Positions 18,501 to 30,500 of a stretch of 64,000 bases of DNA are shown here, one piece after another. The stretch's first letter is position 1, and the number at the start of each line of letters is the position of its first letter. Source of the DNA: an uncultured Acidobacteriota bacterium (GTDB lineage: Bacteria; Acidobacteriota; Vicinamibacteria; Fen-336); NCBI GenBank assembly GCA_963720545.1, contig OY970399.1, positions 4,025,373 to 4,089,372 on the forward strand, written 5' to 3'. The position numbers are program-made.

Positions 18501-21500
18501 AGCCGTTGTCGGTGATGCCGCCCGGCACGCTCTGGCGGAAGACGCCGGCGCCCGCGCCGGCGTAGGGCTGGATCATGCCGGTGGGCGGCGCCACCACGGC
18601 GCTCGCGGTGAAGGCGGTCATGGCGGTGTCGAGCGACTCGCCGCTGACGCGCGAGGCCTCGCCCTCGAAGCTCACCACCGGCACCAGGCTCGAGGTGAGC
18701 GCGACGCCGTAGGCGCGGCCCCAGTTCTCGCCGGGACGCGGCGCGCCGACGAACACGGTCAGGTCGCCCGCGGTCGTGTCCTGGATGTAGCCGAGGCATA
18801 AGGCCGCGGTCAGGATCGCGATTGCTCCCTTGCGCATGTCTTCGAACCTACACCAGTCCTAGTCGATGGCGACGCGGCGGCCGCTGCGCTTTGTGCGCGC
18901 CGCCGCTCGCGGCGTTCGGCCGGCTTCCGCCTGGGCCGCTCGTTCCATCCGTTCCAGCTGCCAGCGGCACATCATGACGATGCCTTCGAGCACCTGCTTG
19001 CGCAGCGCCTGCAGCTTGTCCCTGTCGATGCCGGCATCTTCGAGCAGCTCCGACAGGACGCAGCACGCCTTGGTGCTGTTGCCTCGCCTCGCAGCCATCA
19101 AGCCTCCTTGCCCCCGAACCGCACTCTGAGCACCTGGTCGACGAGCGCCGCGCTCGTCACCGTGCGGCCCGCGATCGAGCGGGGCAGGGTCACGTGGCGG
19201 CGCTGGTTGTCCACCTGCACCACCAGGTCGTCGGCCTTGGTGAACACGCTGAGCCGGTCTTTCTGCGCGAACGGCAGATGGATTGCCATCACGTAGGTGC
19301 CGCGCTCCTTCCTGATCTCGATTGGCCGGCCCTTGAAGAAAGATTGCGACGGGTCGCGCTTGCCGAACACGGCCTTCGCCATCTCGTCGAGGTTCGCAAC
19401 GCCGACCATCTCGCGATCGAAGAGGCGCGACTCGAAGAACGGCACCGGCTCGAACGACTCGCGCGCCTCGCTGAGGTAGCCCTTCTGGATGTCGAACCAG
19501 CGGTCGAAGTAGGGCGAGCGCGCCTCCTCCGGCAGGATGCGGTTCGCGACCACGGCGTCGACCGGAAAGCCGAACAGGCTGAGGTAGGTGTAGAGGCGCT
19601 GCGATTCCTTGATGACCATGCCCTCGGGGTTGAGGACGATGCGGATCGAGCTCGTCTCGGGATCCTGCAGCATCGGCCCCATGCCCTCGAGCTGCTGGTA
19701 GAGCGCCGCCACCGCGCCGAACACGTCGTCGGTGGGGATCGGCATGTCGGTCATGCGCTGCGCCACTGGCCGCACCGAGCGCACCACCGTGCGCTGGATG
19801 GGGAAGATGCGCGTGAAATAGAAGTTGAGGATGTCGGGGACGCCGAGCAGGCGGATGGTTTCGCCGGTGGGCGCGCAGTCGACGATGATGACGTCGTAGC
19901 GGCCGCTGGTCGCGAAGGCGCGTACCCGCAGCAGGCTGAACAGCTCCTCCATCCCCGGCAGGATCGCCATCTCCTCGGCGACCGCGTCGGCGATGCCGCG
20001 GAAGGTCATGAAGCGGGTGAGCCACTCGTGGATGGTGCCCCAGCGCTTCGCCAGCTCCTCGTTGACGTCGATCTCGACCGCGTCGAGCCGCTCCTCGACT
20101 TTCACCGGTTCGGCGCCGAGCGCCACGCCGAGGGCGTCGGCCAGGCTGTGGGCCGCATCGGTCGAGACCACGAGGGTGCGGTGGCCGAGACGCGCGGAGC
20201 GCACGGCGGTGGCGGCCGACAAGGTGGTCTTGCCGACGCCGCCCTTGCCGGAATAGAGGATGACCCTCATCGTCATCGTCGGCGCTCCGCCGGGAACATC
20301 TCGCGCGCCAGTGCGTCGAGCCCGCGCAGGTCGTGGATGTCGGTGTCGCCTTCCGCCACCGCCACCACCCGGCCGCCGCCCTCGGCCGACAGACGCGCGA
20401 GCGTCTTGCGGGCGCCCTTTGCGAGCGCCTGTTCGTCGCGGAAGGCAGCGGCGAGCCGCGCGCGCAGGTCTGTGGGGAGAACCGCGGCCGCCGTGCCCCG
20501 GCCGCGCGCGGCGCCGCTCGCGGGGTCCTGGTGGACGCGGTTGGCGACGAACGTCACGAAGGGCATCTTTTTTTCCCGCAGGCGCTCGTGAAAGTAGAGC
20601 GCCTCCATGAGCGCCGCCGGCGAGGGGCCGCAAACCACCACGAACCCCGACTGCGGGTCGCGCAGCAGCGCGAACACGCGCGCGGCTCTTTCCTTGAATC
20701 CATCGTACATGCCCTCGAACGCCAGGAAGAACTCGGACAGCTCCTGCAGGAAGGCGAGGCCGATGGCACGGTCGGCGAGCCGCAGCGCCATGGCTCCGGT
20801 GCGCGTCGCCACCTTGAAGGTGAGCTTGCCGGCGACGAAGTAGGGGCGCAGGAAGAAGCGCAGGATGCCGGTATCGAGGAACGACAGCATGCGGTCGGGC
20901 GCCTCGAGGAAGTCGAGCGCATGCCGCGTCGGCGGCGTGTCGAGCACGATCAGGTCGAAGCGCTTCTCGGCGCGCAGGGCGAGGAGCCGTTCCATGGCCA
21001 TGTACTCCTGGCTGCCGCCGAGCGCCGAGGACACCTCGACGTAGAAACGGTTCCGCAGGATGCGGTCGCGCGCCGCGGCATCGGGTGCGTGGCGCGAGAC
21101 CACCTCGTCGAAAGTCCGGCGGGTGTCGAGCGCCATCGCATGGAGCGATCCCTTCGCGCCGAAGCCGCCGAGGTCGAGGCGCCGGGGCGCACCCTCGAGC
21201 CGGTCGAGGCCGAGGCTCGTCGCGAGTCGCCGCGACGGGTCGATGGTGCAGACGAGCACCGTGCGCCCCAGGCGAGCCGCCTGCAGCGCGAGCGAAGCGG
21301 CTAGTGTGGTCTTGCCGACGCCGCCGGCGCCGCACACGACGAGCACCTTGCGCGCGTCGAGCGCAGCGGCCAGCGCGGTGCGCCCGGAACCGGTGCCGCT
21401 CACAGCCCGCCCTGTTCCGACAAGCGGTCGGCGAGCGCCTCGAGCTGCGCGCGTCGCGACGGCATCTCATAGAGGTAGGGCAGGCGCAGGACGTCGTCGA

Positions 21501-27500: not shown

Positions 27501-30500
27501 CGTCGAAGTGGTCGATCGACTTCGCCGACCCGATCGCCACCGACGGCTACGGGGCGGACGCCGCCGACGACCCGATCCTCGTCAACCGCCTCTCCGAAAC
27601 CGTGCGCGCGACCATCCAGGAAATGATCGACGGCCGGCTCGCGCGTCGCCGCTCCGTCTGGTTCGGCTGAGGGCCGTTAGCGCGGGCCGAGCCGCGTCTC
27701 GAGGGTGCGCAGGGCGCCGGCGAGTTGGCGGGCCACGGCGGAGTGGTGCGTTGGCGCAGGGGCCGAGCGGCGCGCCGCCGCCTTGTTGCGCAGCTTGATG
27801 CCGTGGCGGCCCAGCATGCGCGCGAATGCCAGCCGGCCGGTGCCGCGGAACGCCGCCATCGCCGAGCGATAGCCGTACTGCGCCACCGTGCGCCGCGCCG
27901 CGACGCGCATGATGTTGTGGGCGAACATGCGCATGTCTTCGCGCCGCGGCTCGATCAGCAGGATGTCCACCTCGGGATGCTCGAGGCGGTAGCGCTCGAG
28001 GCCGTATTGCATGCGGCCGTGGAGCGAGATGCGCAGCACCTGGTCGAGGACGTAGGTGATGCCCTTGTGGCTCAGCGGACCGCCGAGCAGCGGCCGGCGC
28101 GCGTCGTTGCGGATCGGCACGATCGGGTTGATGCAGATGACCAGGTCGGCGCCGTGGCCGATCGCGAGGTTGACGTGCGCGGTCTTGCGCACACCGCCGT
28201 CGACGTACTCGCGGCCGCCAATGCGCACCGGACGGTACAGACCCGGCAGCGCCGTCGAGGCCTGCACCGCCTTGGAAATGGGCACGTCGCGCCGGCCGCG
28301 GTCGCCGAAGGCCACCGCCTCGCCGCTGTCGAGGTCGACCGCGACCAGGAACAGCTGGCGCGCCAGTTGCGAGAAGCGGTCGGTGCCGGCCCGTTCGCGA
28401 AAGGTGGTCGCCAGGAAATCGGCGATGCCGGAGTTGTCGAGCAGGCCCGACGGCAGCAGCTCGAAGAACGGCATCAGCAGGTCGTAGGCGCTCTCGCCCT
28501 CGCCGCGCATGAGGCGTGCGAGCGTTGCGCGCAGCAGGGCGGGGGCGCGTGCCGAGCGCCGGGCGATTTCCCGCGTGCCGAGGCGGAAGAGCGGGCTGCC
28601 GAGGGCGCCGAACAGCGGGCTGCTGTCCTCCAGGAGCTCGTGATACAGGTCGCCAGGCGGGATGCCGTTCGCGAGCAGCGAGGTGACGAACGCCCCGCCG
28701 CTGACACCAACGTACATGTCGAAGTCGAGGACACTGCGGTCGAGCAGGTCCTCGAGCGCCCGCAGCACACCGATCTCGTAGACGGCGCCGGTGACGCCGC
28801 CGCCCGCACAGACGAGGGCGACCTTGGTGGGGCGGCTTGGGCGGCTGCGGCGAACGCCCAGGAGGCTACCGCCGTGTCTTCTTCTGCGCGCCGATGCGGC
28901 GCGAGAGCTCGTCGACCTTGCGGGTCAGCGTCGCGATCTCGCGGCGGCTCGGGATGTTGAGCGCCGCGAGCGTGCGCCTGGCGGTCTCCTCGGCCACGCG
29001 CGACACAGTCTTGCGTTCCTTCTCGACGCGCTCCTGGATGAGAGTGAGGCCGGCGTCGATGCGCTTCAGGGCGCTGCGCCGCTCGGCGATCACGGCGCGG
29101 CCGATCGAGGCGATGGCCTTGCGCGCGTCCACGTGCGAGAGGTTGCTGCGCAGCTGGTGGATGGCGCCCTCAGCCGTGTGCACCGCGGCACGCGCGGCAT
29201 TTTTCGCGGTGCGGGTGGCCGACTCGAGCCGAGACGGGGCGGCCTTGCTCTGCGACGATGCTTGCTTCCGTGCGGACTTCCTGCGTGCTGCCATGACGTT
29301 TCTCCTTTTTCCTTCCTTACTTCGGGTGCGATTGCTTCTTGCGTGGAACGCGCTTCCTGCCGCGCCGCGCCTTTGCGGCTGGCAGGCTGGTTTCGAGCGT
29401 GGCGAGGCGCTCCTTGAGGGTGGTGAGCGACGGCATCACACCGAACTCCTTTTCGCTCGAGGCGACGAGTTCGCCGAGCCGGCGCTCGACCGAGTGCTGC
29501 GCGTCGTGCACTGCGCGGCCGGCCGCGGCAACGATCGCGACGCGCAATGCCGCCGCGTCCTCCAGGCCGAGGCGGCCGCGGGTGATGAGGTCGCCCGCGA
29601 TGCGCTCGGCCTCGCGGCCCACGCGGGCGGCGGCGTCGGGCAGCGCCGGCAGCGCCTCGGCACGGCCGGCGGAAGCCAGCGCCAGTGTGATGATGCGCTG
29701 CAGGATGCGCTTCGGCAGGGTGTTGGTGCGGCGCTTGAGGGTCTCGACGAGCGCCGCGCCCAGCACCTGCGAGCTGATGTCGCGGCCGCTGCTGCTGCGC
29801 TCGCGGATCGTGAGGTCGGCGCCGCGCGCCGCCAGCTCGCTGAGCGCCTCGAGGGTGACGTAGCGGCGCTCGTGCAGGTCGTAGAGCTTGCGGTTCGCGT
29901 AGCGGACCACGATGCGCTCGGCCGGGATGCTGCCCTTGCGCGGCATGGATCGACCATAACGCACTGCGTCATAGTTGTCAAGAGCGAATGACGCGGCGCG
30001 TTACAGGAAGCAAGCGCCTGGGGCGTCAGCGCGGGTTGGGTTCGATCGTCAGCGGTGCGCGCTGGCGGCGGTGATGCTCGAGGCGCACGAACACCACGCC
30101 GAGGACGAGCCCCAGGCAGAGCGAGGCCAACACGACGAATCCGGCGAGCTTCAGCGAGCCGAGCACCACCGACACCAGGTCGAAGGTCGGCTTCGGCACC
30201 ACGACCCAGAGGATGGTGGGCGGGGGAGACGGCGCCATGCCGTTGAGCCTAGCAGCGCCCCCGGTTCAGCGCTTGGCGCGGGCGCGCGCCGTGGGCTGCC
30301 GGCGATTGCCGGTATCGGCCACGGCGGTGCCGGCCGGCAGGCTGTCGAGGTACGCGCGCACGCCGCCGACCAGGCTCTGGGCAATGGTGTCGCGGTAGCC
30401 GTCCTTCTTCAGGAGCGACTCCTCTTCGGGGTGGCTCACGAACGCGATCTCGGACAGCACGCTCGGCATGGTGGCGCCGATCAGCACGTAGAAGGGCGCC

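Follow-up and report, generated by a model that had tools for sequence, protein, structure and literature searches.

A candidate neutral-lipid body locus combining phasin, PhaR and Get3-type ATPase genes in an uncultured Acidobacteriota bacterium

Described systems and the layout of the locus

In the PhaR/PhaP circuit of PHA producers, PhaR is autoregulated and is titrated by the granule surface. The locus described here has in common with the PHA-producer circuit, as set out in the available part of PMC5658603, the PhaR N-domain, a PhaF/PhaI-type phasin and a putative palindromic operator at the phaR promoter, but it contains no PhaC, its phaR, phasin and patatin genes form a single operon, and its neighbors encode neutral-lipid enzymes. 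The wax-ester pathway that joins FcrA, a tested fatty acyl-CoA reductase, to WS/DGAT (PMC11948995, accessible sections) likewise pairs a fatty acyl-CoA reductase (FAR) with an acyltransferase; phasin, patatin, ArsA and ABC1 are not mentioned in the main text of that paper. Here an NAD_binding_4 reductase takes the place of FcrA, and an acyltransferase with an H-x6-D dyad plus an atypical SDR that of WS/DGAT, whereas in related Acidobacteriota loci the exact FcrA and WS/DGAT pair adjoins BagAB-PhaR-phasin-patatin. The acyltransferase also resembles Slr2103/MFAT of the DGAT2 family (excerpts of PMC10171310, PMC12223511 and PMC12048435): it matches motif 4 exactly, has the Slr2103 version of motif 5 and gives a weak, below-cut-off PF03982 match; compared by motifs alone, it differs in having NHSG rather than HNGG/HPHG and in being paired with, or fused to, an SDR. 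Slr2103 and ABC1 kinases are located on cyanobacterial lipid droplets, according to the excerpt of PMC12223511. The ether-lipid operons of Myxococcus xanthus, elb and MXAN_1674-1676 (PMC9131029, in part), share FAR-like, NAD-dependent epimerase-like and acyltransferase genes with the locus. Unlike those operons, the locus showed neither an acyl-CoA synthetase/ACP multidomain enzyme nor an HAD phosphatase or AGPS (a locus-level look found neither an ElbD multidomain enzyme nor AGPS with the FAR), its acyltransferase motif is different, and phasins are present.

Tandem single-domain Get3-like pairs are represented by BagA/BagB (Rv3679/Rv3680; PDB 6bs3), whose reported phenotypes relate to glycerol and nitric-oxide stress (PMC10597346, citing earlier work), and the ArsA-HSP20 architecture by Get3d, which from Arabidopsis co-purified with a lipid-sized ligand (PMC10248533 and PMC6593721, partial texts). 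Both arrangements occur in our locus, but with three ATPases and a small protein in one operon. The literature searched, mostly without subscription papers, contained no paper tying ArsA/Get3/BagAB to phasins or lipid bodies, and none of six terms on these topics occurs in the main text of PMC2963123.

The window analyzed is a stretch of 64,000 nucleotides from the genome of an uncultured, soil-type Acidobacteriota bacterium (G000), which is 95% complete, a limit on the PhaC and WS/DGAT negatives given below. Domain searches confirmed the ATPases, reductase, SDR, acyltransferase, patatin, phasin and PhaR named in an earlier note on this DNA. The features are:

18859..19098, minus strand: small basic protein (79 aa) of no known family, with a conserved CC-x-x-SE motif; closes the ATPase operon
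19098..20276, minus strand: Get3d-type ATPase (ArsA/Get3 plus HSP20-like domain); intact KGGVGKT and DAAHS motifs
20273..21403, minus strand: BagB-like Get3-family ATPase (NF053621; PDB 6bs3_B)
21400..22332, minus strand: BagA-like Get3-family ATPase (NF053622)
22359..23747, plus strand: polytopic membrane protein; no Pfam/NCBIfam match
23761..25647, plus strand: fatty acyl-CoA reductase-type protein (NAD_binding_4); intact TGATGF-x-G and N-x-Y-xx-TK
25644..26645, plus strand: atypical SDR, Epimerase-type, without the catalytic Tyr; certain relatives have it fused with the acyltransferase
26642..27670, plus strand: acyltransferase of PlsC fold (PF01553 plus weak PF03982); H-x6-D dyad (H134, D141); DGAT2/Slr2103-type motifs 4 and 5
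27677..28861, minus strand: patatin-like lipase; GGGVTG, GVSGG and DGG intact; probable CTG start
28866..29294, minus strand: PhaF/PhaI-type phasin (PF05597); amphipathic C-terminal helix
29317..29946, minus strand: PhaR-type regulator (PF07879 N-domain); helical C-part
29953..29981, minus strand: sigma-70-type promoter, TTGACA (29981-29976), 17 bp, TATGGT (29958-29953); 6 bp upstream of the phaR start codon (ATG)
29957..29971, no strand: putative PhaR operator 1, palindrome TRACGC-N3-GCGTYA; overlaps the -10 box; genome-wide top score (24.0)
29989..30003, no strand: putative PhaR operator 2, palindrome upstream of the -35 box; genome-wide second score (22.1)

The membrane-protein gene, which separates the ATPase operon from the enzyme operon, was present in 0 of 80 acyltransferase loci and is probably a lineage-specific insert outside the system.

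The enzyme operon and its acyltransferase

The two reductase motifs are kept in 56 of 57 (TGATGF-x-G) and 57 of 57 (N-x-Y-xx-TK) full-length homologs. We predict a fatty acyl-CoA reductase with intact catalytic motifs, but the protein could instead be a thioester reductase acting on another substrate. A second stand-alone NAD_binding_4 gene lies elsewhere in the genome, adjoining yhhN. W or F replaces the catalytic Tyr of the SDR in most of 10 sequences, and its glycine motif is degenerate; a classical extended SDR epimerase (GalE) was rejected, as the protein lacks intact YxxxK and GxxGxxG motifs. The SDR and acyltransferase are fused in L102, L134 and L136.

The acyltransferase carries an invariant H-x6-D (H134...D141). 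Its RGGFVRLA (225-232) fits DGAT2 motif 4, RxGF(V/I)(K/R)xA, and VPCAIVG (240-246) resembles VPAIAVG, the motif 5 of Slr2103 (general form VPxxxFG), with NHSG standing where DGAT2-type enzymes have HPHG. The PF03982 match is weak and around cut-off (22.3 bits vs 22 on the longer frame), and motif 4 is absent from the homologs in L120 and L128. PlsC (AGPAT) identity was rejected because H-x4-D is missing and TIGR00530 scores 30 bits (cut-off 103); judging by their domains, five other PF01553 proteins in the genome, at least four of them with H-x4-D, can supply the housekeeping PlsC. DIESL/TMEM68, with an H130-D136 dyad (H-x5-D) and an N-terminal membrane anchor, was likewise set aside, the spacing here being x6 in a comparison by motif spacing. 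For Rv0502, to which the earlier note likened the acyltransferase, the missing H-x4-D led one paper to judge function unlikely (PMC10593935, portion of the supplement). A PDB sequence search gave no match at E up to 1, and a fold search returned only PlsC/GPAT/PatA, a fold that does not tell the substrate.

Our recount of neighbors, on our own set of 80 acyltransferase loci, found the SDR in 78, FAR in 60, patatin in 55, PhaR in 50, phasin in 45 and BagA/B in 7, in good agreement with the earlier note (78, 60, 54, 46, 44 and 7); sampled kin are not independent, so that the Fisher values for the neighbor counts overstate. A phasin-like gene lies within the enzyme operon itself in 68 of the 80; no such second phasin-like gene was found in G000.

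A search with PF03007 (control silent, though the family was detected in 9 of 49 genomes of the order) and one with a custom HMM both yielded no WS/DGAT in the genome, as the earlier note had stated. Among 251 genomes of the phylum, PhaR is found in 44 and WS/DGAT in 29, all within the PhaR carriers. The acyltransferase occurs in 12 of 13 BagB genomes without WS/DGAT and in 5 of 14 with it, and thus 26 of 27 BagB genomes carry one or the other. WS/DGAT-ABC1-FcrA-type reductase operons occur in L122, L124, L125 and L126, and an acyltransferase homolog (29% identical) occupies the WS/DGAT slot in L128 and lies 3' of the reductase in L120. Because the acyltransferase and WS/DGAT largely alternate, and because all 29 WS/DGAT genomes carry PhaR, a neutral-lipid function gains support.

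The same operon could instead make or remodel membrane lipids: its product might be an acylated polar lipid or, in the manner of ElbD/ElbE, alkyl-ether lipids, and the phasin-like and Get3-like proteins would then handle membranes rather than a storage body. Its enzyme types are those of the two M. xanthus operons (PMC9131029, in part), its acyltransferase has a PlsC/GPAT fold, it lacks a PhaR operator, and Slr2103 acylates plastoquinone derivatives (PMC10171310, excerpt), which leaves room for an acceptor other than a storage-lipid precursor. However, the acyltransferase swaps with WS/DGAT beside FcrA, the operon itself usually includes a phasin-like gene, the whole set is dispensable (G017, G110; see below), FAR is absent beside the SDR-acyltransferase pair in 16 of the 17 loci L064-L080, and the recurrent neighbors seen do not include an acyl-CoA synthetase, a carrier protein or an AGPS-like gene. 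We consider a membrane-lipid role unlikely. The earlier note's non-PHA neutral-lipid body module, strengthened by the WS/DGAT alternation, stands as the best reading, with wax ester or triglyceride as the predicted product and the ether- or membrane-lipid role as its main rival.

Get3-type ATPases and their lipid-gene neighbors

The BagA and BagB models are the best matches of the tandem single-domain pair: the BagB-like protein matches NF053621 at 330 bits (cut-off 521) and PDB 6bs3_B at E 3e-69, and the BagA-like protein matches NF053622 at 105 bits (cut-off 400). Both are below the NCBIfam equivalog cut-off and are therefore treated as homologs, not named orthologs. The third ATPase combines the ArsA/Get3 domain PF02374 with a C-terminal alpha-crystallin domain, PF17886, as in Get3d. 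An arsenite pump ArsA was rejected, as the ATPase domains are single rather than two fused, TIGR04291 is far under cut-off, and there are no ars neighbors. The 79-aa gene that closes the operon lies downstream of Get3d in 10 of 10 order loci fetched around BagB; an atlas search with its product returned unnamed clusters only. A BagA, BagB and phasin complex prediction scored 0.00, uninformative either way.

PhaR is present in 24 of the 27 BagB genomes vs 20 of the 224 other phylum genomes; these 20 imply that BagB is dispensable. Around 20 BagB loci of other Acidobacteriota we found PhaR in 14, patatin in 14, phasin in 12, ABC1 kinase in 10, FcrA-type reductase in 7, acyltransferase in 6 and WS/DGAT in 5. 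BagA-BagB lies at most about 9 kb from PhaR and a patatin in 14 of these loci, PhaR is missing from 6, and BagA-BagB-PhaR-phasin-patatin forms one same-strand run in 10, across several families. Two further loci have BagA-BagB at the head of an operon that ends in acyl-CoA synthetase, SCP2-like, phasin-like and WS/DGAT genes. Thermoanaerobaculia and family f15 show a different arrangement of BagAB and lipid genes, and in G215 Get3d lies in a run with PhaR. Both blocks were lost in G017, at two loci with intact flanks, and both are absent from G110, which has PhaC. G104 was not counted as loss evidence, and three genomes were left out of it: the contig ends in G065, and in G125 and G107 a nearby mglA ortholog is also missing.

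The lipid-body reading could be true and the ATPases nonetheless be general chaperones that are neighbors only. Breaks in the pattern speak for this: G128 keeps Bag/Get3d and a phasin, but its locus no longer has the reductase, SDR, acyltransferase, patatin or PhaR, and WS/DGAT is absent from the genome, and G131 keeps Bag and the acyltransferase but has lost PhaR and phasin. In addition, the distance between the two blocks in genomes of the order ranges from 1.4 kb to 340 kb, and lipid-gene neighbors occur at 0 of 10 BagB loci from five genomes of the myxobacteria-like phylum, in which 114 of 121 genomes carry BagB. The recurrent same-strand run, the distinct arrangements in Thermoanaerobaculia, f15 and G215, and the loss of both blocks in G017 and G110 argue against it, and we regard it as quite improbable. 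Operon structure in other classes, together with joint loss, goes far to refute the earlier note's reservation that the ArsA link might be chance.

Regulation, the proposed system and its implications

The phasin (PF05597, E 1e-7) and PhaR N-domain (PF07879, E 1.5e-11) matches are above cut-off. The glycine-rich loop of the patatin precedes the first ATG/GTG/TTG of its frame, and a CTG start near 28861 is needed. The phaR promoter is conserved 5' of phaR in relatives, and its two palindromes are putative, autoregulatory PhaR operators; beyond these, matches in a genome-wide scan are at shuffle level. The operator was found upstream of FAR in 0 of 55 cases, SDR in 0 of 84, acyltransferase in 0 of 88, BagA in 1 of 31 and Get3d in 0 of 14. 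A weak operator-like site (13.2) that precedes the ATG of the reductase gene was rejected for lack of conservation. With operators at the phaR promoter only, the earlier description of the lipid enzymes as wired to PhaR holds for phaR-phasin-patatin and overstates the case for the enzyme and ATPase operons.

PhaC, also reported absent earlier, was not found in G000 by PF07167 or TIGR01836 (positive control detected) or by a six-frame search with a two-sequence HMM of relatives' PhaC (best E 0.45). No acetoacetyl-CoA reductase PhaB exceeded the cut-off (best 254 bits vs 302), and PhaE was not found in a search whose control was silent. Among 48 other genomes of the order, PhaC occurs in 2 and phasin in 44; in the phylum sample it occurs in 8 of the 44 PhaR carriers and 0 of the 27 BagB carriers. 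We rate it as very improbable that PHA or a related polyester is produced by an unassembled or novel-type synthase, with the patatin as its depolymerase. In its favor, PHA producers are the source of the phasin and PhaR definitions, some PHA depolymerases are of patatin type and the genome is 95% complete. Against it, PhaC is missing from 46 of 48 order genomes and every BagB genome, the PhaB and PhaE searches were negative as above, and class genomes with PhaC in family f7 show no match to the G000 phasin.

On balance, we favor by a little a wax-ester or triglyceride body system without PHA, comprising a DGAT2/Slr2103-like synthase, a phasin coat, an autoregulated PhaR, a patatin lipase and Get3-type helpers. 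This reading rests on the identity of the genes and their motifs, on synteny and co-occurrence, on joint loss and gene fusion, and on the putative operators. The reductase would convert acyl-CoA to fatty alcohol, and the H-x6-D acyltransferase, standing in for WS/DGAT and probably with the degenerate SDR as partner subunit, would esterify fatty alcohol or diacylglycerol. One or more phasins would coat the droplet. PhaR would repress its own phaR-phasin-patatin operon via the two operators and, by analogy with the PhaR/PhaP circuit, be titrated by the droplet surface, leading to derepression, and the patatin would hydrolyze the stored lipid. BagA-BagB and Get3d, along with the small partner of Get3d, would have a part in this too, most likely as chaperones that use ATP to bring amphipathic coat proteins or lipid to the droplet surface or take them away from it.

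Reviews give the function of bacterial Get3-like ATPases as unknown; with lipid bodies and their coat, the locus offers a client class that can be tested. Its small acyltransferase becomes a candidate for making wax or triglyceride independently of WS/DGAT. This touches on a gap in M. xanthus, where triglyceride persisted after deletion of its single DGAT (PMC4048283). A bolder reading, which we rate as less likely than not, is that BagAB and Get3d act in the biogenesis of lipid droplets and that the H-x6-D acyltransferase and its pseudo-SDR together represent one more class of bacterial neutral-lipid synthase. If so, the triglyceride that M. xanthus still forms without its sole WS/DGAT could be accounted for, and PhaR and PF05597 phasins would be general lipid-body proteins. 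The finding bears on the practice of naming PHA producers from the presence of phasin or PhaR, and on carbon storage in abundant soil Acidobacteriota.

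Layout of the locus and its putative operator

The studied stretch contains three transcription blocks, arranged with their neighbors as follows.

17237-18837 (-): outer-membrane beta-barrel protein (OMP) and long MglA-like GTPase, which in most loci of the family come after the ATPase genes
Leftward block (-): BagA-like, BagB-like and Get3d-type ATPases and a 79-aa protein, with stop and start codons overlapping throughout
22359-23747 (+): polytopic membrane protein without a family match, in 0 of 80 related loci
Rightward block (+), beginning past this unrelated gene: reductase, atypical SDR (25644-26645) and acyltransferase (26642-27670), with overlapping stop and start codons
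27677-29946 (-): third block, phaR, phasin and patatin, converging on the reductase-SDR-acyltransferase side
30026-30202 (-): small membrane-protein gene between an amidase gene and phaR, in relatives too

The membrane protein at 22359-23747 may resemble a GT-C-type glycosyltransferase. At 60001-64000, GC content falls from about 0.70 to 0.58. The patatin of the window requires a CTG start, where relatives use ATG, GTG or TTG at about the same distance. The nearest relatives carry the label Vicinamibacteria. In the 80 loci around homologues of the acyltransferase, a recount with in-frame queries, which gives lower bounds as many loci end at contig ends, found SDR in 78, reductase in 60, patatin in 55, PhaR in 50, phasin in 45 and BagA/B in 7, in agreement with the 78, 60, 54, 46, 44 and 7 of the earlier note. 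In 68 of the 80, the reductase and SDR genes are separated by a second phasin-like gene, phasin2, which was not found in the source genome.

A putative PhaR operator, a 15-bp palindrome, occurs in two copies around a TTGACA-17-TATGGT promoter upstream of phaR, and relatives from two classes share it. No site in the genome scores higher than the two of the window, and the remaining matches lie at shuffle level. The motif scan found no operator-like palindrome upstream of the enzyme or ATPase genes and, with the motif confined to phaR, PhaR seems to control only the coat and the lipase.

Enzymes of the rightward block

The acyltransferase has a predicted PlsC/GPAT fold (pLDDT 77.5), but its H-x6-D dyad is invariant and it carries motif 4 of DGAT2 and an Slr2103-like motif 5. 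One abstract gives the products of Slr2103 as triglyceride, phytyl esters and acylated plastoquinol (PMC12048435), another paper as plastoquinone lipids only (PMC10171310); Slr2103 and ABC1 kinases are droplet proteins (PMC12223511), and a PlsC/GPAT fold can act as a triglyceride synthase, as in DIESL (PMC10482677). The SDR is missing its catalytic Tyr, and three loci encode it as a fusion with the acyltransferase, which suggests a partner subunit of that enzyme.

The reductase has intact motifs, and its nearest solved structures are thioester-reductase domains. A second NAD_binding_4 reductase of the source genome (L147:5762-7526) lies directly 3' of a YhhN (lysoplasmalogenase-type) gene, a pair that may point to ether-lipid metabolism elsewhere in the genome. 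An ether or membrane lipid as the product of the studied locus itself is unlikely.

Linkage of the ATPases to the lipid genes

The earlier note allowed that the ArsA-type ATPase genes might be chance neighbors, and it missed their linkage because its 10-kb flank was too short. The gap between ATPase operon and acyltransferase measures 14-17 kb in G053, G083 and G029, where the two are divergently oriented as in the window; it is 47 kb in G047 and 340 kb in G008. Genome G017 has lost both the ATPase and the lipid block, at two sites on different contigs: at the first, the OMP gene is directly followed by the glycosyltransferase gene that flanks bagA in relatives, and at the second, the amidase adjoins the dnaE2 region without anything intervening. 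The small membrane-protein gene seen at 30026-30202 in the window is retained in G017. In G110, the phasin, BagB, acyltransferase and Get3d markers were all not found, nor was phaR within 2.5 kb after the amidase or Get3d within 9.8 kb before the OMP gene, and PhaC is present. Genomes G065, G104, G107 and G125 were set aside in the joint-loss comparison as ambiguous or uninformative. The OMP and MglA-like GTPase genes persist in G017 and G110 despite deletion of the ATPase operon and thus form a separate module. As counter-examples, G128 retains the ATPases and a phasin but has lost the enzymes, patatin and phaR, while G131 retains the ATPases and acyltransferase but has lost phaR and phasin.

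In other classes, 20 of the 24 BagB loci found were fetched; their neighbors include PhaR (14), patatin (14), phasin (12), ABC1 kinase (10), HMG-CoA-reductase-like genes (7), acyltransferase (6) and WS/DGAT (5), and bagA/bagB-phaR-phasin-patatin form a single same-strand run in 10 of the 20. Thermoanaerobaculia have bagB-bagA and a presumed SCP2-like gene (Pfam gave no match), facing phasin2-SDR-acyltransferase and patatin-phasin-phaR; in eight of their loci (L068, L072, L073, L077, L078, L080, L131 and L132), bagA and bagB appear as a single frame of ~560-680 aa, by fusion or in-frame overlap. Family f15 has bagA-bagB-deacetylase-like-acyl-CoA synthetase-SCP2-like-phasin2-WS/DGAT, with a Histone-deacetylase-family protein between bagB and the synthetase (L097:5397-7130, L099:6722-8482). 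In G215, Get3d lies two genes ahead of phaR. Ten BagB loci from five myxobacteria-like genomes have no PhaR, phasin, patatin or lipid-enzyme neighbor.

The same-strand runs and the joint loss in G017 and G110 largely dispel the suspicion of chance adjacency, although G128, G131 and the myxobacteria-like loci break the pattern. ATPases unrelated to the lipid-body system are a distinctly improbable reading, and a functional link to neutral-lipid storage is quite probable.

Elsewhere, the bagAB genes of L134 and L136 are divergent and have no PhaR; next to them are an SDR-acyltransferase fusion, an ABC1 kinase, a halogenase-like gene and START-like proteins. At L102, such a fusion is accompanied by genes for ACP, amine oxidase and HMGR-like proteins; these sets are possibly a specialised lipid pathway. 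At L152, L154 and L155, phaR is divergent from operons that contain GNAT acetyltransferases and WS/DGAT, and bagAB is absent.

The probable stored product and a proposed role of the ATPases

In the source genome (94.8% complete), profile searches found neither PhaC nor WS/DGAT, in line with the earlier note; no PhaB was found over the cut-off and PhaE gave no match, a WS/DGAT search and the PhaE search having controls without signal. The class sample (n=151) comprised the source genome, 48 of its order and 102 others. Order genomes carry phasin (44/48), BagB (43/48), acyltransferase (43/48), Get3d (44/48), PhaC (2/48) and WS/DGAT (9, two being weak partial matches); the other 102 have phasin in 1 (weak), BagB in 2, acyltransferase in 1, Get3d in 3 and PhaC in 4, all but the PhaC count from queries with single proteins, so that distant forms may escape.

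Across 251 phylum genomes, PhaR occurs in 44, WS/DGAT in 29, BagB in 27 and PhaC in 11 (9 strong, 2 weak partial), G284 contributing one weak PhaC match and denominators only. PhaR is present in all 29 WS/DGAT genomes of this sample. With PhaC missing from 36 of the 44 PhaR genomes and all 27 BagB genomes, a hidden PHA system behind the phasin and PhaR is very unlikely. The acyltransferase profile was run in 45 PhaR- or BagB-positive genomes only, G000 (the source genome) and G002 being scored from the class survey. The enzyme occurs in 12/13 BagB genomes without WS/DGAT versus 5/14 with it, and in 10/15 PhaR genomes without WS/DGAT versus 7/29 with it; four PhaR genomes lack WS/DGAT, acyltransferase and PhaC. 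These genome counts take in non-independent relatives; when families are counted instead, WS/DGAT or the acyltransferase is present in 13 of the 14 with BagB.

WS/DGAT-ABC1-HMGR-like operons occur at L122, L124, L125 and L126, and in their counterpart at L128 the place of WS/DGAT is taken by an H-x6-D acyltransferase, a position that is the most direct hint on the stored product. At these five loci and L129, the operon of WS/DGAT (or acyltransferase), ABC1 kinase and FcrA-type reductase adjoins bagAB-phaR-phasin-patatin. These HMGR-like proteins have the N-terminal domain described for FcrA, whose fatty acyl-CoA reductase activity has been tested (PMC11948995). The slot swap and these reductases suggest that both the reductase and the esterifying enzyme can be exchanged while the core of coat, regulator, lipase and ATPases stays constant. 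The L128 and L120 homologues share 28-29% identity with the window acyltransferase and lack motif 4, so a like function of the window enzyme is an inference.

The component proteins are members of known families. In the literature searched, we found no report tying Get3 or BagAB to phasins or lipid bodies, or of an H-x6-D acyltransferase class standing in for WS/DGAT. In Myxococcus xanthus, the adjacent acyltransferase/SDR pair MXAN_1946/1947 is lower in csgA and mrpC mutants, together with one phasin and one ArsA gene (PMC11980068), and these mutants are reported to have fewer lipid bodies. The pair is a candidate counterpart of the window genes, as a lead only, because thousands of genes change in the mutants and one M. 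xanthus gene is annotated as phaC.

Neutral-lipid storage, taken by itself, is likely, and we cautiously favor the locus as a whole being a wax-ester/triglyceride body system. By analogy with the hydrophobic groove of Get3 and the lipid-sized ligand of plant Get3d (PMC10248533, PMC6593721), the ATPases would chaperone amphipathic coat proteins or lipid.
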